DNA from: an uncultured Acidobacteriota bacterium
GTDB lineage: Bacteria; Acidobacteriota; Terriglobia; Terriglobales; Acidobacteriaceae
Length of the DNA stretch: 64,000 nucleotides
Assembly (NCBI GenBank): GCA_963754885.1
Contig: CAVWHT010000041.1
Location: 24,441 to 88,440 of the forward strand
Direction: 5' to 3'
Under the pieces are notes generated by a model. That model was not told the origin of the DNA. It was given only the letters and a program-made list of their open reading frames with translations, and did not search any database. Positions 1 through 62,869 of this stretch are shown piece after piece; position 1 is the first letter of the stretch, and each line of letters starts with the position of its first letter. Made by a program: the position numbers and the translations under genes.

Positions 1-721
1 GCAGCACGCGATCGGAGAAGACGTGCGGATGCGGATTGCAGCGCTCGCCCGAGATGGCATTCACGGCTTCGACATATTCGGATCCAAGGTCGTAGAGAAC
101 TTTGCTGACGAGTCCCACGGCTTCGTTTTCGCGCAGGCCCGGCTTCATGGCGCGATAGAGTTCGTCATAAGCGGCGTCGACCATCATCGCGGAAGTGTTG
201 AGCAGCGCGATTTCGTCTTGGGTCTTGATGACGCGGGCCTCGGACATCAACTGCTGGCCGTCAACGACTTCGATTCCTTCGCGCTGGAGCGCAAACAAGA
301 CCGGCAGTTCGATGATGTCGATGCCGACCGGCTCTTTGTGCAGGCCGCGCTTTTCGAGTTCGATGCGAATCTTTTTGGCGACATCTTCGGCGCGGCCCAT
401 CTCCGGCGTCATCGCGCCACGGAGCATGGAGATGCCCGGGCGCGATCGCTCACCGAGCCACGGACAGTTGAGCTGATGATGTTTGGCGGCGGAGCCGAAG
501 TCCCACAGGATGGGCTCATCATTTTGCGGCAGCAGCGTAAAGCGGTTGGCCTTGTCCTGCGCCCAGGTGCCGATGTGCGTGGCCGTGAGGTAGCGGACGT
601 TGTTCATGTCGAAGCAGAGCAACGAGCCCATTGAGGATTTGGCGAGAAGATCTTTGGCCTTTTGCAGGCGTTCGCGGCGGAGGCGGTCGAAGTCGATTCG
701 TTGCTCCCAATCGACCGCCAT
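1..721 (-). CDS. M24 family metallopeptidase (Xaa-Pro peptidase / creatinase-like), 5' part only; gene continues past window start
   Basis: Absent from the ORF track because it has no stop in the window. Manual - strand translation from ATG 721..719 gives MAVDWEQRIDFDRLRRERLQKAKDLL...IKTQDEIALLNTSAMMVDAAYDELYRAMKPGLRENE. This is the creatinase/prolidase N-domain plus the start of the pita-bread fold. Track ORF 23..634(+) is its antisense shadow. Confidence 0.75.
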   Translation of the reverse strand, partial: MAVDWEQRIDFDRLRRERLQKAKDLLAKSSMGSLLCFDMNNVRYLTATHIGTWAQDKANRFTLLPQNDEPILWDFGSAAKHHQLNCPWLGERSRPGISMLRGAMTPEMGRAEDVAKKIRIELEKRGLHKEPVGIDIIELPVLFALQREGIEVVDGQQLMSEARVIKTQDEIALLNTSAMMVDAAYDELYRAMKPGLRENEAVGLVSKVLYDLGSEYVEAVNAISGERCNPHPHVFSDRVL

Positions 722-2819: not shown

Positions 2820-3724
2820 TGCTTTGCTCCTCCGGCGGTTACAGGCGTAGTCACGCCTGACATCTTTGCCAGCACGTCGAATACGCAGGCGAAATCATAT
2901 TTGGTCCAGCCCATGCCGCGAGCCGCGGTCAGGAACTCGTTGCTTACGGCCGTGGTGGGCAGAGGCACGTCGAGTTGGCGGCCGAGATCCATCGCCAGCA
3001 CCATGTCCTTCTGCATCATGTTGACATCGAACCAGGCTTCTTCCGGTTGCTGCAGGACGAAGGGGCCGCGATATTGGATCATGGGTGAAGCGATGGCGCT
3101 GTGGGTAAGAACATCGACAGCGACCTCGCGGGCGATGCCGCTTTTCTCGGCGAGCAATACTCCTTCGGAAAAGGCGAGCATCTGGACGGCGAGGCTCAGG
3201 TTGGTCGCGATCTTCATGGAGAGTGCCAGTCCATTATCGCCGACGTGCGTAACCTTGGGGCCGATGTCGAGCAGCAGCGGCTTGATCTTGTCGAATGTTT
3301 CTTTTCGTCCTCCGACCATGACTGACAGCTTGCCTTCCTGAAGCGTGATGACGCTGCCGGAAACAGGAGAGTCCACCATGTCGGCGCCGAGAGCGCGCAC
3401 TTTCGCAGCCAGGGCGCGACTCACGCCAGGACTCACCGTGCTCATATCGATGAAGGTCTTGCCGGCAGTGAGACCGGCGAGCAGGCCGTCGGGTCCTTCG
3501 GCGATGGATTGGATTGCGGCTGCATTCGTAACCATCGCGAAGGTGTAATCGGAGGCGCTGGCGACGGCGCGCGGCGAGTCGGCCCATTGCATTCCTTTTT
3601 CGACGAGCCACTGGGCCTTGGCGCGCGTGCGGTTGTAACCGGTCACGGAGTGACCCTTACTCAACAGCCGGTTGACCATCTGGCTGCCCATGACTCCAAG
3701 TCCGATGAATCCTACTTTCGCCAT
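2816..3724 (-). CDS. NAD(P)-dependent oxidoreductase, 3-hydroxyisobutyrate / 2-hydroxy-3-oxopropionate reductase family
   Basis: MAKVGFIGLGVMGSQMVNRLL Rossmann N-terminus; 302 aa, typical HIBADH-family length. Confidence 0.9.
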   Translation of the reverse strand: MAKVGFIGLGVMGSQMVNRLLSKGHSVTGYNRTRAKAQWLVEKGMQWADSPRAVASASDYTFAMVTNAAAIQSIAEGPDGLLAGLTAGKTFIDMSTVSPGVSRALAAKVRALGADMVDSPVSGSVITLQEGKLSVMVGGRKETFDKIKPLLLDIGPKVTHVGDNGLALSMKIATNLSLAVQMLAFSEGVLLAEKSGIAREVAVDVLTHSAIASPMIQYRGPFVLQQPEEAWFDVNMMQKDMVLAMDLGRQLDVPLPTTAVSNEFLTAARGMGWTKYDFACVFDVLAKMSGVTTPVTAGGAKQ

Positions 3725-29222: not shown

Positions 29223-29666
29223 CTATGAGGCCGCAAGTCTGGAGGCAGCGGAGCGTCTGATCCACCAAATGCCTACAACAAGACACACCAGCACCGGGAT
29301 GATTGCCTGTGCCAATATTCCAACATAATCGGCTCGACTTGGGGATGTTATCCATCCGCGCCTAATCCATTTCCAAGCATTGAGGCTTCCACTGTACAAA
29401 AATAACGCGGCAAGAACGCCGACCCAGACCAGCGGCTTCTTCGTTTCTGTCACCCACACCAATACGATGGATGCAACAGCGGCAACCAGCGCATCGGGGA
29501 ACCCTTGCCACAGCCACATTGCCACGTTGCCTGAATCACCTGTAAAGATCAGCCGATTACTGAGAGGAATGAACAAGACGCGGAATAGCATTGCCACGAG
29601 ACTTGAAGCCTCCCAGACTCCAATAACAAGTAGTGCGTTTCTCGTTGTAAGCCGAGCCATTCGCAT
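29223..29666 (-). CDS. Hypothetical integral membrane protein (about 4 TM)
   Basis: 147 aa, hydrophobic, W-rich; first gene of the AT-richer island. Confidence 0.5.
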   Translation of the reverse strand: MRMARLTTRNALLVIGVWEASSLVAMLFRVLFIPLSNRLIFTGDSGNVAMWLWQGFPDALVAAVASIVLVWVTETKKPLVWVGVLAALFLYSGSLNAWKWIRRGWITSPSRADYVGILAQAIIPVLVCLVVGIWWIRRSAASRLAAS

Positions 29667-29872
29667 CTTCCTAGGACTCCATGCTCCTCAATGCTAAAGA
29701 GCGAAGTCAGGGTTTCCAAGTTACCTCGGGTACTTGGTCAAGGCATGGTTGACGAAATCAGGCCATAGCACAGGATTATGCATTTGACGCAGCACCAAAA
29801 TGGGAACGAAAATGACTAACAGCCGCGACAGGGAAGAGAAACGGGCCGGAGAGGAATCCCCGGCCCCAGATC

Positions 29873-30106
29873 TTACAGATGCTGAAGTTGTTGCACGAGT
29901 TGACGAAGTTTGTCAGATAGTGCGTCAACAGAATAGGCAGTTGAGCGAACGGTTGAGGCAGCAGCAAGAATTGCTTCTGTCGATACTCCAGACCGGACGC
30001 ATTCAATGAACAGCAGATCGTTTCGGGCAAGTTCGCCGATGCGATTTTGTTGCTCTAGCGTCACATCGGCTAGTTGCGTTAGGATGCGCTTAACGTCAGT
30101 TTCCAT
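29873..30106 (-). CDS. Hypothetical small helical protein (77 aa); competing antisense ORF 29800..30009(+)
   Basis: METDVKRILTQLADVTLEQQNRIGELARN... from ATG 30106, with AAGGA ~13 nt upstream. The first 36 codons of track ORF 29873..30214 are just the tRNA read as protein. Confidence 0.3.
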   Translation of the reverse strand: METDVKRILTQLADVTLEQQNRIGELARNDLLFIECVRSGVSTEAILAAASTVRSTAYSVDALSDKLRQLVQQLQHL

Positions 30107-30131
30107 GCGAGGATATTTTCCTTTCGTGGTG

Positions 30132-30221
30132 CGGCGGAGGTGGGAGTCGAACCCACAAAGCCCTGTCGGGGACTTGACGGCTTTTAAGGCCGTTGAGCCT
30201 AGCGGTTTGCTCATCTCCGCC
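30132..30221 (-). tRNA. tRNA-Leu(UAA)-like, type II (long variable arm), atypical
   Basis: - strand sequence: GGCGGAG-AU-GAGC..GCUC-A-ACGGC-CUUAAAA-GCCGU-[CAAGUCCCCGACAGGGCUUU]-GUGGG-UUCGACU-CCCAC-CUCCGCC-G. The cloverleaf folds, but it has A8 instead of U8, no GG in the D-loop, G73, and GCACCA instead of NCCA downstream. Confidence 0.6.
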
Positions 30222-30352
30222 GATTATTTGATTATGCTGACTGGATTGGCAGCCATCCTCAAACGAAACACCAGACGGCGGCAAGTGCCACGGAAGTGAA
30301 GTGGCACGCGAGTTAACGGGCTAACGTCACCTTTCTCTGGCTGAGGCTGCGC

Positions 30353-30547
30353 ATGATATCGAAAGGGAAAAAATTGTCAACAAGTGAAAAACCAGGACAC
30401 GGTGGAAATCTGCCGGAAACACTGAAGGTGGACCGCTCGAAATTCGAGGGAATCGTGCAGCGCCTGATTCACGCCGATCCTGTCAAGCGCGATGACGTGA
30501 AGGTATCGAAGAAAAAGCCTGAGAAGTTAATCCCGCCGCAGAAGTGA
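30353..30547 (+). CDS. Hypothetical small Lys-rich protein (64 aa)
   Basis: Track ORF only; no recognisable family. Confidence 0.35.
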   Translation: MISKGKKLSTSEKPGHGGNLPETLKVDRSKFEGIVQRLIHADPVKRDDVKVSKKKPEKLIPPQK

Positions 30548-30552
30548 TCCGT

Positions 30553-31224
30553 TTACTTTCGCCGAATGTCGGCAAAACCGCTCAAACCTTCGCCTTCGTA
30601 GAGCGCTTCATCTAATGCCTTAACCATCGCGGGGTTTGGAGAGATGGAATACGTGAATTCGCTGTGTCCAAGATTTGCAGTGCGCGTGACAATGCCAAGG
30701 CTCAAACAGTGGTTATATACCCAGAATATCTGATCACGCGTCATTCCGACAGGAAGCTGCGGATCGTAGGTGCCGAACGTTAGAGTTCCATGATTCTTTA
30801 AGTGGCGAAGTGCCGTCAGGCCGTCGCGCTTTGTCGTATCCAGTGCGCTTTTCAGAGTGTCATATGCATGTTGCTCTGCTGGCGTTCGTTTCGGCGGTTG
30901 GAGGTCGAGGATTGTTTGGTCGCGCTGCTTGATTACGCTATGCAGTTCTGTTTCTTTTGTGGCGAAGGAGGCACCCTGCTCTTCGTGGAGCAGCCTAGGC
31001 ACGCGAAGCAACTGGTACAGGATAAAAAGAAAAATCAATGCTACGTATGGCAGAATCGTAGCGGCAACCGAAGGCCAAAAATCGCCAGGACGGAGAACCC
31101 CATATTTAATTTGCAAAGCCAGGGTGACGATCGCAACAACGATAACAATCATCTGCGCGATTCCGAATTGCAAAAATTCTGCACCGACACGTCGAGCGAG
31201 TGTGGGATAATACCTCTGAGACAA
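30553..31224 (-). CDS. Hypothetical membrane-anchored protein (2 TM + ~140 aa soluble domain)
   Basis: IAQMIVIVVAIVTLAL and ILPYVALIFLFILYQLL hydrophobic segments. No family recognised; AT-richer codon usage than the flanks. Confidence 0.55.
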   Translation of the reverse strand: MSQRYYPTLARRVGAEFLQFGIAQMIVIVVAIVTLALQIKYGVLRPGDFWPSVAATILPYVALIFLFILYQLLRVPRLLHEEQGASFATKETELHSVIKQRDQTILDLQPPKRTPAEQHAYDTLKSALDTTKRDGLTALRHLKNHGTLTFGTYDPQLPVGMTRDQIFWVYNHCLSLGIVTRTANLGHSEFTYSISPNPAMVKALDEALYEGEGLSGFADIRRK

Positions 31225-31263
31225 GAAGTATGCCTTTCCAAGCCCCGACTGCGAATCGGGGCT

Positions 31264-32226
31264 TTAGCTTTTCCGAACGAACGGCGTGAACGCATTCTCT
31301 TCCACTAGCTTGGCATACGGCAAGTTCCCTGCCAGCGCCATTCTCAGCACCGTCATCCCGAATAGATCAGCATTCTTCCGATTGTTGAACCGGAACGAGA
31401 ACTCATTCAAGTAGCGTTGCAGGTGCTTTAACGAAACCTTGTGGAAGGCTCCGGTCAGGCCGCGCTTGAACAGCGAGAATGCGGATTCCACGGTGTTCGT
31501 GTGGACATTGCCGCGAACGTAGATTTTGTCCCGGTGCCGGATCGTTTCATGCTTTGATCCGTGGATGCCAGCGCCGATCATGGCGGAAGGATAGGCTTGC
31601 CATTCATCCGTGACCACCATTTTCACGGCTGGATCGATGTGCTCTTTGATCTGCTCGCTAAGATTTTTGGCGGTCGGGCTTTCGATGTGGATCAGCCGCA
31701 GATCGCCACCGCGCTCGCGGATACCCATCACCACTTCTTTATTCAGTTGCTTGCGGTAGTTGCCGCGCTGCTTCCCGCCGACGTAGGTTTCGTCCACTTC
31801 CACTGTGCCCTTCAATTTTGGCGGATTCGCTTCCACCATGGCCTTGCGGATGCGGTGCGCGAGATACCACGCAGTCCGGTATTGCACGCCCAGAGCGCGG
31901 GCGAGTTGACTGGCGGAGATTCCCTTTTTCGATTCGGTAATCAGCGCAATGGCGAGGAACCATTTCGCCAGGGGCAGGTGGGTGTCATGGTAGACGGTGC
32001 CCGTGGTGGCGGTGAACTGGAAGCGGCATTCGTTGCACTGGTAGAGCGAGCGGTCGGGGCTGCGCTTGCCCGTCTTTTTGTTGAGCTTCCCTTTTGCGGT
32101 GATGCGGGTGATTTTCGGGGAGTTACATCCGAGGCACTTTACACCGTCCGGCCAGCGCATATGCTCTAAAAAGGTGTGGCACTTTTCATCGGTGTTCAGT
32201 TCCTTGTAAATGTCTAACAGGTTCAT
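31264..32226 (-). CDS. IS1595 family transposase (ISXO2-like)
   Basis: N-terminal zinc ribbon (CLGCNSPKI...YQCNECRFQF), then VEVDETYVGGK and TDEWQAYPS DDE-type motifs; 320 aa. Terminal inverted repeats could not be identified by eye. Confidence 0.9.
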   Translation of the reverse strand: MNLLDIYKELNTDEKCHTFLEHMRWPDGVKCLGCNSPKITRITAKGKLNKKTGKRSPDRSLYQCNECRFQFTATTGTVYHDTHLPLAKWFLAIALITESKKGISASQLARALGVQYRTAWYLAHRIRKAMVEANPPKLKGTVEVDETYVGGKQRGNYRKQLNKEVVMGIRERGGDLRLIHIESPTAKNLSEQIKEHIDPAVKMVVTDEWQAYPSAMIGAGIHGSKHETIRHRDKIYVRGNVHTNTVESAFSLFKRGLTGAFHKVSLKHLQRYLNEFSFRFNNRKNADLFGMTVLRMALAGNLPYAKLVEENAFTPFVRKS

Positions 32227-32347
32227 GGTGGGCGCTCCGAACTGACCCCATGATGACAGAAAAGGGATGCTGTGTCAAGTGCATAATCATCCCATAGCAC
32301 AAGCATGCGCCGTCTGTTCGCCCCCAGCAGGGAGATTTGTAGATTGT

Positions 32348-32581
32348 TTACTTTCGCAATTTAAAAAGGCCGAGACGTGCAGTGATGATCAACGCCGCTG
32401 TCCAGCAAGAAATGGCCAGAAACGAGAGTTCGCGACCTGCCCTCGCTTTCGCCTCAGTCCAGAACAGAGAGTAGTAAAGAAAGCTTGAATACAGAAAACA
32501 CAGCAATCCCAGAATCATCAGCGACCGTGCCACAAACAGCCACCGCCTTGGGTTCCGCTTGATAAAATTAGTATCGCTCAT
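32348..32581 (-). CDS. Hypothetical small membrane protein (77 aa)
   Basis: Two to three hydrophobic segments; track ORF only. Confidence 0.4.
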   Translation of the reverse strand: MSDTNFIKRNPRRWLFVARSLMILGLLCFLYSSFLYYSLFWTEAKARAGRELSFLAISCWTAALIITARLGLFKLRK

Positions 32582-32729
32582 CCCTGCTGGTCCAAGATCT
32601 GCGGTTTCTGAAATGCTAAACGCTCTGACCTTCGCGCGGCTCCCATTATGCGCTCTACGATCAACTGTTGCTATCAGGCCATAGCGCTTATTGACCTGTT
32701 CTGCACGACATCACGGCAGTAGGAACCGC

Positions 32730-33092
32730 CTACGTGATCCCCAGCTTCTCCAGATTCTCGACCGGCCTGGCCAAGACCGCCTTGCCGCCTCGTGCCACGA
32801 TCGGCCGCTGCAGCAGCTCCGGATGAGCCGCCATGATATTGAGAAGCGCATCGTCACTTAGATCCTTACCCGCCACGAACTCTCGATAGGCAGATTCTTT
32901 CGTTCGCAGAACGTCATGCGGCTTCAACCCCGCGCGCCGCAGCAAGCCTTTCAACGCCTCCGCTGACAACGGATGCTCGATGTAATTCACGGTCTCAAAT
33001 TCCACGCCCTGTGCAGTCAAGACACGCTTGACCTCCCGGCAAGTGCTTCATGTCGGCTTCTCGTACAGCGTTACCGCTTCGTTTTTCTTCAT
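32730..33092 (-). CDS. ArsC/Spx/YffB-family thiol-redox protein with in-frame UGA (putative selenocysteine, UxxC)
   Basis: GGAGGA (33106..33101), 8 nt, ATG 33092. MKKNEAVTLYEKPT, then TGA (33050..33048), then STCREVKRVLTAQGVEFETVNY... in the same frame as track ORF 32730..33020. The total of 120 aa fits the family. Confidence 0.75.
33015..33033 (-). promoter_or_regulatory. Candidate bacterial SECIS hairpin
   Basis: GGUCAAG-CGUGU-CUUGACU (6 WC + 1 G.U) begins 14 nt after the UGA; the apical loop contains GU. Confidence 0.45.
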
Positions 33093-33127
33093 CAGAAGCA
33101 TCCTCCGATTCAGTCGATGTTCCCGGG

Positions 33128-34156
33128 CTACGAAATCTTCAGCACTACCTTCCCGTAGTTCTTCCCTTCTTCGAGCAGCTTGTAAGCTTCAACCGCCCGA
33201 TCCAGCGGGTATACGTGCCCGATCTGCGGAACCAGTTTGCCCTGCTCTATCCACTGGGAAAGCTGCTGCCACGCCGGTTCCATGATCTCGCGCTTATGGG
33301 AAAGGTAAGACAGCCATAGCCCCTGCACCATTCCCGATTTCGCGTACATCGCCCGCAGATCCAGCTTCGGAGACTTCCCGGTCGCCGTGCCGTACTGAAT
33401 GACGCGTCCGAAATCGCGCAGGCAGCGCAGGCTCTTGGCCGTGTGCTCGCCGCCCAGCATTTCGAAAACGGCGTCCACGCCTTCGCCGCGCGTGAGATTC
33501 TTGACCACCTCTTCGTAGTCGTGCTGTTTGTAGTTGATGCCATGCTGCAGGCCCAGCTTTTTCACCCGATCCAGCTTGTCATCCGACGACGACGTGCCGT
33601 ACATCTCCACCCCCAGCAAATGCCCGATCTGTACTGCTGCAGTGCCGACCCCGCCGGCCACGGCATGGATGAGCACGCGGGGAGTGCGGCCGGACTCGGC
33701 GGAATCAAAATCCCCACCCTGTCGCGAAGAACGCGACAAGGATGGGGCACCCGATTGTGATGCAGGCTGTGGCGTCATTCCCGCTTGCCAGTAGCCGAGA
33801 TAGGCCGTGAAATAGTTCACCGGAAAGGCGGCGGCCTGCTCGTCAGTCCAGCGGTCAGGAATAGGCCACAGCATGTGGGAATATGCCGCGGTCTTTTCCG
33901 CGAAGGCGGCCCACTGCGCGTAGCCCATCACCCGGCGGCCGCTGCTTTCTTCCACTCCGGCAAATTCGCGTCCTGCAATTAATGGCGGCGGGGGCGTCCC
34001 CGGATACCCGCCTTGCGCAGTCATGAAATCGGCAAAATTCAGACCTCCAGCGGTCACACGGACAATCGTCTGCCCTGGTTTCGCGGTCGGTTCGGGGGCA
34101 TCCTGAATGGCAAGCCCATCTGGCCCAGAGAGGCTGGTGATCATCAGAGCTTTCAT
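33128..34156 (-). CDS. NADPH:quinone oxidoreductase / zeta-crystallin-like MDR family
   Basis: MKALMITSLSGPDGLAIQDAPEP...IHAVAGGVGTAAVQI...GKVVLKIS; 342 aa including a REP-derived insert. Confidence 0.9.
   Translation of the reverse strand: MKALMITSLSGPDGLAIQDAPEPTAKPGQTIVRVTAGGLNFADFMTAQGGYPGTPPPPLIAGREFAGVEESSGRRVMGYAQWAAFAEKTAAYSHMLWPIPDRWTDEQAAAFPVNYFTAYLGYWQAGMTPQPASQSGAPSLSRSSRQGGDFDSAESGRTPRVLIHAVAGGVGTAAVQIGHLLGVEMYGTSSSDDKLDRVKKLGLQHGINYKQHDYEEVVKNLTRGEGVDAVFEMLGGEHTAKSLRCLRDFGRVIQYGTATGKSPKLDLRAMYAKSGMVQGLWLSYLSHKREIMEPAWQQLSQWIEQGKLVPQIGHVYPLDRAVEAYKLLEEGKNYGKVVLKIS
33712..33747. repeat. Intragenic REP-like palindrome (family CGCGACAAGGATGGGGCAC)
   Basis: ccccaccctgtcgcg-aagaa-cgcgacaaggatgggg inside the oxidoreductase CDS. 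Confidence 0.7.
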
Positions 34157-60903: not shown

Positions 60904-62337
60904 TTATGCGATGCGCTGGAGCGCCTGCGCGATAAGCGCATCCTGCTCGGGAGCAACCGTGCGCAGATCCAGCAGAACCCTGCCATCTTCGACGCGAGCG
61001 ATAATTGGGGGATCGGAGTTGCGCAGGCGGGCGCACAGCGCGTCCGCGGTCAAATCGGCGCAACTTACCGCCAGCAGCCGCGTGGGAAGCACCGAAGATG
61101 GGGCCGCGCCGCCGCCGATGACCGATTCGCCGTCAATGATTTCGACCTTCATTTTTGATAGCTGCTGGGACTCAGCTCGCGTCTTCGAGATCTGCGCCAC
61201 ACTGTTTGCCAAGGCCTGGGCGCGGGTCCCGATTTCATCCTTGCTCAAGCGCATCATCCGCAACGTGGGGATCGCGCCGTGATCGCCTTTGACATAAGCG
61301 AGCAGCGTGGCTTCAAGTGCCGCATAAGTAAGTTTGTCCACGCGCAAGGCGCGAAAGAGAGAATTCGAGCGCATGCGGGCTACCAGGTCGGCGCGGCCGG
61401 TGATCAGCCCAGCCTGTGGACCGCCCAGCAGCTTGTCTCCGCTGTAGGTGACGATGTCGACGCCGGCGCGCAGGCTATCGAGCACGCTGGCTTCGCCATG
61501 GATGCCGAAATTCTGCAGGTCAACCAGCGCCCCGCTTCCCAGATCTTCCACCAGGGGCAAGTCGCGCGCTTGCGCAAGATTCACAAGCTCCGCGGTGGAA
61601 GGCTGCTCGGTGAATCCGCTGATTTCGAAATTGGATCGGTGCACCCGCAACAGCAGCCGCGTGCGCTCGTGGATCGCGTCCTCATAGTCGGCGATCCGCG
61701 TGCGATTGGTGGTGCCCACTTCGCGCAGGATCGCCCCCGACTTCGTCATCACGTCGGGGATGCGAAACGATCCGCCAATCTCGACCAGTTCCCCGCGCGA
61801 GACGATCACCTCACCCGCTTCCGCCAGGGTATTCAATGCCAACAGAACTGCGGCGGCATTGTTGTTGACTACGATGGTGGCGATGCGGTCGTCGCCCAGC
61901 GCCTTGCGGAACAGGCGGTCGACATGCACGTCGCGCTTGCCGCGTTCCCCGGCTTCCACGTCGAATTCAAGATTGGAATAGCCACCGCTGGTTTCGCGGA
62001 TGTGATCCAGCGCCGACTCCGCTAACGGGGCGCGTCCGAGATTGGTGTGCAGAATGACTCCGGTTGCGTTGATGACCGCGCGCAGCGAGTAGGCCAGCGA
62101 CTGGCGGAGATGTCCCTCGACGGCATTGGACAGGCCGCCCAGAGCAAGCCGTAGCCTGCGCTCATCCAGCGATCCGGAGGCAATCTCGTCGCGGAGACGG
62201 CCGAGCACCGCGCGCGCAGCATCGGTGACCGCGGCGGCGCCATGAACCGCAGCGAGCGAAGCGACAGCCTCAGTCCGGAGCAATTCATCGACCGCCGGCA
62301 ATTCGCGGAAGAGTTCCGATCTCGCGGTAGCTTTCAT
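60904..62337 (-). CDS. selA: L-seryl-tRNA(Sec) selenium transferase
   Basis: ...AVINATGVILHTNLGRAPL... and ...YSGDKLLGGPQAGLITG (PLP-lysine motif); 477 aa. Confidence 0.93.
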   Translation of the reverse strand: MKATARSELFRELPAVDELLRTEAVASLAAVHGAAAVTDAARAVLGRLRDEIASGSLDERRLRLALGGLSNAVEGHLRQSLAYSLRAVINATGVILHTNLGRAPLAESALDHIRETSGGYSNLEFDVEAGERGKRDVHVDRLFRKALGDDRIATIVVNNNAAAVLLALNTLAEAGEVIVSRGELVEIGGSFRIPDVMTKSGAILREVGTTNRTRIADYEDAIHERTRLLLRVHRSNFEISGFTEQPSTAELVNLAQARDLPLVEDLGSGALVDLQNFGIHGEASVLDSLRAGVDIVTYSGDKLLGGPQAGLITGRADLVARMRSNSLFRALRVDKLTYAALEATLLAYVKGDHGAIPTLRMMRLSKDEIGTRAQALANSVAQISKTRAESQQLSKMKVEIIDGESVIGGGAAPSSVLPTRLLAVSCADLTADALCARLRNSDPPIIARVEDGRVLLDLRTVAPEQDALIAQALQRIA

Positions 62338-62383: not shown

Positions 62384-62827
62384 TTACAACGTGTGCAGGT
62401 ATGCCAGCAGATCCTGGATATCTTGCGGGCTCAGCTTCTGGCTATAGGCCGGCATTTCATTGCGGCCCAGCCGGATGATGTCGGTGACGCGCTCGTCATT
62501 GGCCGGCAACCCGCTCAGGGGAAGATATTTGTGCTGGAAGATTCCCTTTAGCCCCGGTCCTTTTTTCCCTCTTGTGGAATACGGCCGGTGACAGCGGTCG
62601 CATTCGGAGTCGTAGATCTTGCGGCCAGCCGACTGCTGAGGGTTCAGGCCGAGTTCGGCGTCCGACTTGCGGCGCTCGACGTCGCAGGCCAACGCGGATG
62701 CCAACACCGCGCCCGCCAGCAAGATTCCGAATAAAGAAGTGTAAGTAGTTCTGCCAGAGATGAATCCGCCGTCTCGCTCTCGCAATCGAATGAACCGTCC
62801 TTGCTGCCGTGATACGCGGCGCTGCAC
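62384..62827 (-). CDS. Membrane-anchored/secreted class I c-type cytochrome
   Basis: Single CDRCH haem-binding motif with a distal ...NEMPAY... Met; N-terminal hydrophobic anchor. Confidence 0.8.
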   Translation of the reverse strand: MQRRVSRQQGRFIRLRERDGGFISGRTTYTSLFGILLAGAVLASALACDVERRKSDAELGLNPQQSAGRKIYDSECDRCHRPYSTRGKKGPGLKGIFQHKYLPLSGLPANDERVTDIIRLGRNEMPAYSQKLSPQDIQDLLAYLHTL

Positions 62828-62869
62828 GCCGCCTTACAATGATAAAGTATCCGGACCGGGTTGCTATTG

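Follow-up and report, generated by a model that had tools for sequence, protein, structure and literature searches.

Selenoproteins of the ArsC family have been published since 2005 and were established computationally (PMC1088965, PMC2398784, PMC1794560, PMC13188914). An 'Arsenate reductase' with a UxxS motif, in which U denotes selenocysteine (Sec), was represented by 14 Sargasso Sea sequences (PMC1088965); the Global Ocean Sampling (GOS) data contained 'ArsC 1' (UxxS) together with 'Arsenate reductase 2' or 'ArsC 2' (cd03032, UxxC) (PMC2398784), and ArsC-like selenoproteins were reported from Desulfotalea and Desulfuromonas (PMC1794560). A 2026 review includes the UxxS as well as the UxxC type and gives TIGR00014 and NF041106 as their models (PMC13188914). 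Here, we analyzed a 64-kb stretch of DNA from an uncultured Acidobacteriota bacterium (contig CAVWHT010000041.1; hereafter the window, whose positions are used as coordinates throughout), in which an ArsC-family gene at 33092..32730 (-) is interrupted by an in-frame UGA. Comparative sequence analysis indicated that this region is very probably a single gene encoding a 120-residue selenoprotein with a glutaredoxin-type ArsC fold, the UGA being read as Sec. A preliminary description of the window had proposed a likely unannotated selenoprotein here, and this proposal was supported by alternation of TGA with Cys codons, by a conserved hairpin, and by alignment of the UGA with the catalytic Cys12 of R773 ArsC.

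The predicted protein was compared with representatives of both published types; for all family scores, Cys was placed at the stop to give the 120-residue product. With the UxxS type (representative MBT3519430.1, TIGR00014), it would share the ArsC fold, Sec at the position of Cys12, and a selenocysteine insertion sequence (SECIS) lying in the coding sequence (CDS) just after the UGA, and both score best against TIGR00014. The two are 29% identical over 109 residues, and they differ in motif and host, the window protein having U-x-x-C in a soil Acidobacteriota bacterium, whereas the UxxS type has U-x-x-S in marine bacteria. The UxxC type 'ArsC 2' (NF041106 ArsC_rel_Se_1, representative MDE3003982.1) likewise has U-x-x-C on an ArsC/Spx-superfamily scaffold, but identity to two published UxxC sequences was 24–25%, and the score with the NF041106 model ('ArsC family (seleno)protein') was 16.1 bits (cutoff 85). 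By contrast with that type, the window protein retains the ArsC arginine triad and is structurally nearer to ArsC/YfgD than to Spx. Given its 24–29% identity to the published representatives and its failure with the NF041106 model, the predicted protein constitutes a lineage of its own within a known kind of selenoprotein; it is nearest to the TIGR00014/YfgD branch but has U-x-x-C.

R773 ArsC and its YfgD-like paralogues (1i9d, 3f0i, and 3rdw) resemble the window protein in fold (template modelling (TM) score 0.85–0.89), in the position of the nucleophile, and in Arg60, Arg94, and Arg107. Unlike R773 ArsC, the window protein would use Sec in place of the nucleophilic Cys and has Cys in place of Ser15, a possible intramolecular resolving residue; in addition, its gene is outside an ars operon, and its TIGR00014 score is just under the cutoff. 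The Spx/MgsR regulators have a CxxC-type motif in the same place of the same superfamily fold, but the TIGR01617 score of the window protein was 66.7 bits (cutoff 75.05), and the structural match was weaker (TM ~0.73). Spx is not known to have an equivalent of Arg107.

A 120-residue reading frame with an in-frame UGA

As stated in the preliminary description, the mechanically generated list of open reading frames (ORFs) contained at this locus only a truncated 96-residue ORF, at 32730..33020; the start codon of this ORF is TTG. Direct reading of the minus strand bore out every coordinate given for a GGAGGA motif 8 nt before an ATG, and translation confirmed that 14 sense codons (MKKNEAVTLYEKPT) lead to a TGA, beyond which the frame stays open (STCREVKRVL...) and runs into the listed ORF (Table 1). 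The sense strand reads ...AATCGGAGGATGCTTCTG ATG AAG AAA AAC GAA GCG GTA ACG CTG TAC GAG AAG CCG ACA TGA AGC ACT TGC CGG GAG GTC AAG CGT GTC TTG ACT..., and translation of 33092..32727 (-) gives MKKNEAVTLYEKPT, the TGA stop, and STCREVKRVLTAQGVEF...KLGIT followed by the terminal stop. The earlier statement that a total of 120 residues suits the family also held, full-length Cys homologues of 117–121 residues aligning end to end with the product. The 96-residue ORF is an artefact; TTG 33020 is a Leu codon within the 3' arm of the hairpin described below. Judging from the structural model, the product of this ORF would lack strand 1, the catalytic residue, and the start of helix 1.

Table 1. Positions of the gene, its functional elements, and associated genes in the window
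Feature	Position	Strand	Basis and remarks
Shine-Dalgarno sequence GGAGGA	33101..33106	-	Read from sequence; 8-nt spacer to ATG 33092..33090
Complete CDS of the predicted ArsC-family selenoprotein	32730..33092	-	Translation; 120 codons plus TAG 32732..32730, predicted Sec at codon 15
UGA codon 15, predicted to be read as Sec	33048..33050	-	Aligns with catalytic Cys12 of R773 ArsC
TGC codon 18, second Cys of U-S-T-C, likely resolving Cys	33039..33041	-	C18 invariant in 27 full-length homologues
Hairpin GGUCAAG-CGUGU-CUUGACU	33015..33033	-	5' arm 33033..33027, loop 33026..33022, 3' arm 33021..33015
Arg63 codon (Arg60 of R773 ArsC)	32904..32906	-	PDB alignment; invariant in alignments A1 and A4
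Arg96 codon (Arg94 of R773 ArsC)	32805..32807	-	PDB alignment; invariant in alignments A1 and A4
Arg109 codon (Arg107 of R773 ArsC)	32766..32768	-	PDB alignment; invariant in alignments A1 and A4
Zinc-type/PIG3-family NAD(P)H quinone oxidoreductase gene	33128..34156	-	TIGR02824 2.9e-59; Pfam ADH_zinc_N
selA, L-seryl-tRNA(Sec) selenium transferase	60904..62337	-	TIGR00474, 549 bits (cutoff 267.9)

The UGA codon alternates with a catalytic Cys codon

To survey the codon, we used 81 homologous loci, comprising the window and 80 loci from a scan of named genomes; the latter came nearly all from Acidobacteriota metagenome-assembled genomes (MAGs) of the Terriglobia and Pyrinomonadaceae, and Cys forms were encountered in the genome scan also in Melainabacteria, Gemmatimonadota, and others. 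The codon aligned with the window TGA was TGA in 59 loci (window included), TGC in 20, and TGT in one, and in none was it TAA or TAG; the TGA/TGC alternation for which the preliminary description had proposed to look in relatives is thus present. Loci translated through the stop all show ...VT.YEKPT, the stop, and S/T..CRE..., and the two sides of the UGA are conserved as protein in one frame (VT.YEKPT before, STCREVKR after). Alignment with Cys homologues, the other comparison proposed, revealed that the N-terminus of the window protein can be aligned with theirs at every residue. The UGA falls on the first Cys of the motif, giving U-S-T-C as had been suggested, and is aligned with the catalytic Cys12 of E. 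coli R773 ArsC.

A protein database search yielded 923 relatives. Among the best 120 of these, 30 were full length (117–183 residues) with YEKPTC[ST][TK]CR, and the remaining 90 (86–101 residues) began just past this motif.

Three relatives had irregular sequences. L081 (ENA k141_430599, 134..136), on a 599-nt metagenome contig, has TTA (Leu) in place of TGA and keeps the hairpin as GGUCAAG-CGUGU-CUUGGCC; it is explained by either inactivation of the allele or a mistake in the assembly. In L020 and L051, the frame is broken shortly upstream of the Sec codon and the downstream sequence is conserved, and these frameshifts are likely assembly indel errors and not real pseudogenes.

A conserved hairpin follows the UGA

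The hairpin reported in the preliminary description begins 14 nt after the UGA, with its loop beginning 21 nt after it, and its coordinates were right (Table 1). A degenerate pattern of TGA, 14 nt, and hairpin had one match in the window and none in 100 shuffles. RNAalifold, given 44 Terriglobia-type sequences aligned from the UGA, returned a single consensus structure consisting of exactly the 7-bp stem of 33033..33015. In this register, 99.7% of the cells were paired, compared with 14–58% when the 3' arm was slid by 1–3 columns. The loop was variable (CGUGU, CGGGU, AGGAU, and others), but its second nucleotide was G in all 44 sequences, and the Terriglobia consensus can be written GGUCAAG-NGNNN-CUUGACY.

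Codon usage was then analyzed in 44 Terriglobia Sec-type sequences, window included. Codons in the stem were almost fixed (GUC 44/44, AAG 39/39, GUC 26/26, and UUG 42/44), and other Leu columns used 5–6 codons. The mean normalised codon entropy was 0.15 for the six stem codons versus 0.79 for the 85 other columns (Mann-Whitney p = 5e-5), none of which fell below 0.31. This synonymous-site test is stronger evidence for the predicted hairpin than covariation. A double change was found at one of the seven stem pairs (A-U to G-C, AAG/UUG to AGG/CUG), in L013 and L044 of the 44 sequences and also in L051, and three other pairs had G-U or other single-sided changes only.

The published bacterial SECIS (bSECIS) model specifies a loop of 3–9 nt, an upper stem of 4–16 bp, and a G in the first two loop positions (PMC13188914), as well as a UGA-to-loop distance of 16–37 nt and a minimum free energy (MFE) of -7.5 kcal/mol or lower (PMC13188914). 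In the window hairpin, the loop has 5 nt with G in second place, the stem has 7 bp, and the UGA-to-loop distance is 21 nt, all of which agree with this model. The earlier claim that the position and size of the hairpin are compatible with a bacterial SECIS therefore stands; the single-sequence stability of the region is not above that of shuffled sequences.

An Rfam scan of the window at gathering thresholds matched only two tRNAs and no RNA family at the hairpin. Distant Cys forms (L022, L033, L038, and L055–L072) had no hairpin at the aligned position. The best-hairpin energies of Sec and Cys forms differed weakly (p = 0.03), because the GC-rich Cys forms have chance hairpins.

Fold and active site of the predicted protein

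The product scored 56.7 bits with Pfam ArsC PF03960 (cutoff 24; E = 3e-15) and 96.3 bits with TIGR00014, glutaredoxin-type arsC, a near miss of the 106.05-bit cutoff. Membership in NF041106 and in Spx/MgsR was rejected on the scores given above. The best sequence matches in the PDB were the YfgD-like arsenate reductases 3f0i (5e-19) and 3rdw (1e-18), followed by R773 ArsC 1i9d (7e-12), and the alignment equates U15 with C12, R63 with R60, R96 with R94, and R109 with R107 of R773 ArsC. The three arginines did not vary in either of two alignments of homologues (A1 and A4).

An AlphaFold model was available for a 78%-identical Cys homologue (P0001), with a predicted local distance difference test (pLDDT) value of 92.7. 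In this model, strand 1 comprises residues 7–11, and the C-x-x-C motif (residues 15–18) opens a helix at 16–27. The model superimposed on 3rdw, 3f0i, and 1i9d with a root-mean-square deviation of 1.4–1.5 A at the TM scores quoted above, and matched Spx at TM ~0.73. The preliminary description had placed the gene in an ArsC/Spx family; by sequence and predicted structure, the ArsC part of that assignment holds, and the protein is ArsC/YfgD-like and not Spx-like.

Sec machinery in the window

The earlier identification of selA in the window was confirmed by its TIGR00474 score (Table 1). The presence of selA indicates that the organism makes Sec-tRNA(Sec), and use of Sec is known from Acidobacteria (PMC1794560), including Occallatibacter riparius (PMC12013277). 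The gene is not followed by selB here, the common arrangement being selAB. Directly upstream of selA and co-directional with it, a gene at 62387..62833 (-) encodes a cytochrome c containing CxxCH (Pfam Cytochrome_CBB3, 2.5e-12). When the window was scanned for further ORFs that are split by UGA and carry redox motifs, 37 candidates came up; most were shadow ORFs, and the result was uninformative.

Weighing the selenoprotein assignment against alternatives

Several observations weigh against the assignment. None of selB, selD, and tRNA-Sec was found within the 64-kb window, and a search for tRNA-Sec in the window and 60 related loci found none near the gene. The ars genes (arsR, arsB/acr3) were not recurrent among the neighbours of the loci examined, and the gene is outside an ars operon. 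The TIGR00014 score lies under its cutoff, and the biochemical function is assigned by homology. Covariation in the hairpin is thin, with a double change at one of seven pairs, because the stem is nearly invariant. The bare hairpin has a folding energy of ~-6.1 kcal/mol, short of the -7.5 kcal/mol of the bSECIS model; a 31-nt segment folds at -7.4 kcal/mol, and a 51-nt segment (-14.1 kcal/mol) passes only with an extra, non-conserved lower stem. Furthermore, the hairpin region alone was no more stable than shuffles (z = -0.16 to +0.80 for 32990..33055 and its sub-segments), and in two of four folded segments the MFE structure did not contain the hairpin. A hairpin in a single sequence is thus no evidence by itself, and the support is comparative.

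Read-through of the UGA without Sec, by a suppressor or irregular tRNA or by near-cognate Trp or Cys insertion with the hairpin merely slowing termination, would be in keeping with the lack of tRNA-Sec and selB in the window, and irregular tRNAs that are possible nonsense suppressors have been described in Acidobacteria (PMC5389517). We nevertheless consider it improbable. What replaces the UGA in homologues is specifically Cys, and the site is that of the catalytic nucleophile, a pattern that marks Sec; the geometry of the hairpin, with G invariant in its loop, fits a bSECIS of the SelB type; and selA is present, a gene with no known role beyond Sec synthesis. Moreover, TGA is the ordinary stop of a third of the long ORFs (12 of 38 in the window), which argues against an efficient general suppressor. 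The same count indicates the standard code, and reassignment of TGA was therefore rejected.

A second alternative takes the TGA as a true stop, leaving a 14-residue leader peptide and a functional 96-residue protein starting at TTG 33020. Gene callers chose the 96-residue model in most public assemblies, as seen in the 90 short proteins among the best 120 relatives, and an SD (Shine-Dalgarno)-like GGGAGG is present at 33037..33032, 11 nt upstream of the TTG. This reading is very unlikely to be correct. The shortened product would not contain strand 1, the catalytic residue, or the start of helix 1, and the TTG is fixed by the hairpin, the corresponding codon not being an equivalent possible start in other loci. 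Each residue of the 'leader' has its counterpart in the aligned N-termini of Cys homologues, and the segment is under selection at the amino-acid level: Y-E-K-P-T before the UGA was kept in 41–44 of the 44 sequences, each residue with 2–4 synonymous codons, and the upstream codons are therefore translated in this frame. This conservation of the 14 upstream codons as amino acids, with synonymous changes, excludes the possibility, raised in the preliminary description, that they lie outside the protein. A true stop would also have to be TGA in every case and never TAA or TAG. The 59 TGA codons, the absence of TAA and TAG, and the selection on the upstream codons together count out the leader-peptide reading as well as any pseudogene or sequencing error. 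A nonsense mutation from TGC to TGA in this genome needs one change, and isolated defects do occur in relatives (the TTA of L081 and the frameshifts of L020 and L051), but the chance of it is negligible given the same TGA in 58 other loci from independent assemblies at up to ~50% protein divergence, with frames intact on both sides.

Proposed mechanism and role

For the selenoprotein that we favour, a mechanism can be proposed by analogy with the bacterial SECIS paradigm. As the ribosome nears, the 7-bp/5-nt hairpin (33033..33015) would bind the SelB-GTP-Sec-tRNA(Sec) complex, which would deliver Sec to the A site at the UGA (33050..33048) in competition with release factor 2. Sec15 would then occupy the nucleophile position (Cys12 of R773 ArsC), at which helix 1 has its N-terminus, with Cys18 following three residues later; Arg63, Arg96, and Arg109 are the conserved counterparts of the arginines that hold the oxyanion in ArsC. 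The selenolate would most likely attack an oxyanion or an oxidised substrate, arsenate being the model substrate of the family. Resolution of the adduct by Cys18 would give a selenenylsulfide within the molecule, and this bond could be reduced by a thioredoxin or glutaredoxin system.

The quinone oxidoreductase gene is upstream of and co-directional with the selenoprotein gene, ends 35 nt before its ATG, and is a neighbour shared by the 13 closest loci; it is a probable operon partner. In the Pyrinomonadaceae clade, the neighbours (8–10 loci) were a glutamate-dehydrogenase-like gene and a radA-like gene, both named by eye from their sequences. Because the gene is outside an ars operon and follows a quinone oxidoreductase gene in the closest clade, a role in general redox or electrophile defence like that of YfgD-type paralogues appears more likely than dedicated arsenic resistance.

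A second hairpin type and the history of Sec and Cys forms

The 13 Sec forms among the Pyrinomonadaceae-type loci (L053–L080) do not have the Terriglobia hairpin and share GCUGCUC-CGUGA-GAGCGGC instead. This hairpin lies 26–44 nt after the TGA, displaced by 9 nt in the 3' direction relative to that of the Terriglobia, with its loop at 30 nt. In a neighbour-joining tree (no support values), the Pyrinomonadaceae Sec clade was sister to Cys forms of Melainabacteria/Obscuribacterales and separate from the Terriglobia clade, and a few Cys forms were nested within the Terriglobia clade. The different hairpin positions and the sister relationship to Cys forms suggest, as a lead and not a result, either two independent Cys-to-Sec origins or relocation of the SECIS within the coding region.

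The closest Cys form, L003 (CAVSER010000005.1, ~3043..3080), has TGC together with an intact hairpin (GGUCAAG-CGCGU-CUUGACU) and the same quinone oxidoreductase neighbour; it appears to have changed from Sec to Cys recently, leaving the SECIS as a relic. Another TGC form, L016, retains six of the seven hairpin pairs. We tentatively propose that these proteins may form a distinct, uncatalogued Sec lineage of the ArsC superfamily, common in soil Acidobacteriota, that combines the arginine triad for arsenate binding with a U-x-x-C selenenylsulfide couple and has two branches with different SECIS elements, although we regard this proposal as somewhat doubtful. If it is true, one small family would hold two Cys-to-Sec conversions or a SECIS relocation, plus nested Sec-to-Cys reversions with a relic hairpin (L003).

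Consequences for annotation

At 59 of the 81 loci, the call made for the gene, or to be expected, is an 'arsenate reductase' of ~96 residues that is truncated at the 5' end and does not contain the catalytic residue, and the same truncation presumably affects the 90 short proteins among the best 120 database relatives. A corrected call would alter the proteome predicted for many MAGs of soil Acidobacteriota and would add a selenoprotein to a phylum with few listed; three selenoproteins, none of them ArsC, were given for the Occallatibacter riparius test genome (PMC12013277). Selenium use in this dominant soil phylum may thus exceed what annotation suggests. The family also offers a compact natural data set on SECIS evolution inside a CDS, in which synonymous sites are frozen, one stem pair has a compensatory change, the hairpin occurs at two positions, and Cys revertants keep it as a relic. 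Nothing known about Sec decoding or ArsC enzymes is overturned, and a specialist would not be surprised.

A probable insertion downstream of the gene

The relatives L002 and L020 (~89% identical) contain no equivalent of the ~3.4-kb region at 29231..32660, and its flanks are ~0.4–0.5 kb apart in them. The region contains a 91-nt, type II tRNA at 30131..30221 (-) that ARAGORN called Leu(UAA) and that scored 30.9 bits in Rfam (gathering threshold 29). This tRNA is odd in three respects: position 8 is A and not U, the D-loop (AAACCGCTAG) does not have its typical GG, and the acceptor stem is followed by G in place of A. 'Allo-tRNAs' of 8/4 or 9/3 type were reported in Acidobacteria beside mobile elements (PMC5389517); the present tRNA folds 7/5, which ruled out this assignment. 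A 223-residue ORF at 30553..31224 (-) had no family match, and the other contents of the region are an IS1595-family transposase gene at 31264..32226 (-) and a 77-residue hydrophobic ORF at 32348..32581 (-). A mobile element has probably inserted here, a short distance downstream of the selenoprotein gene.

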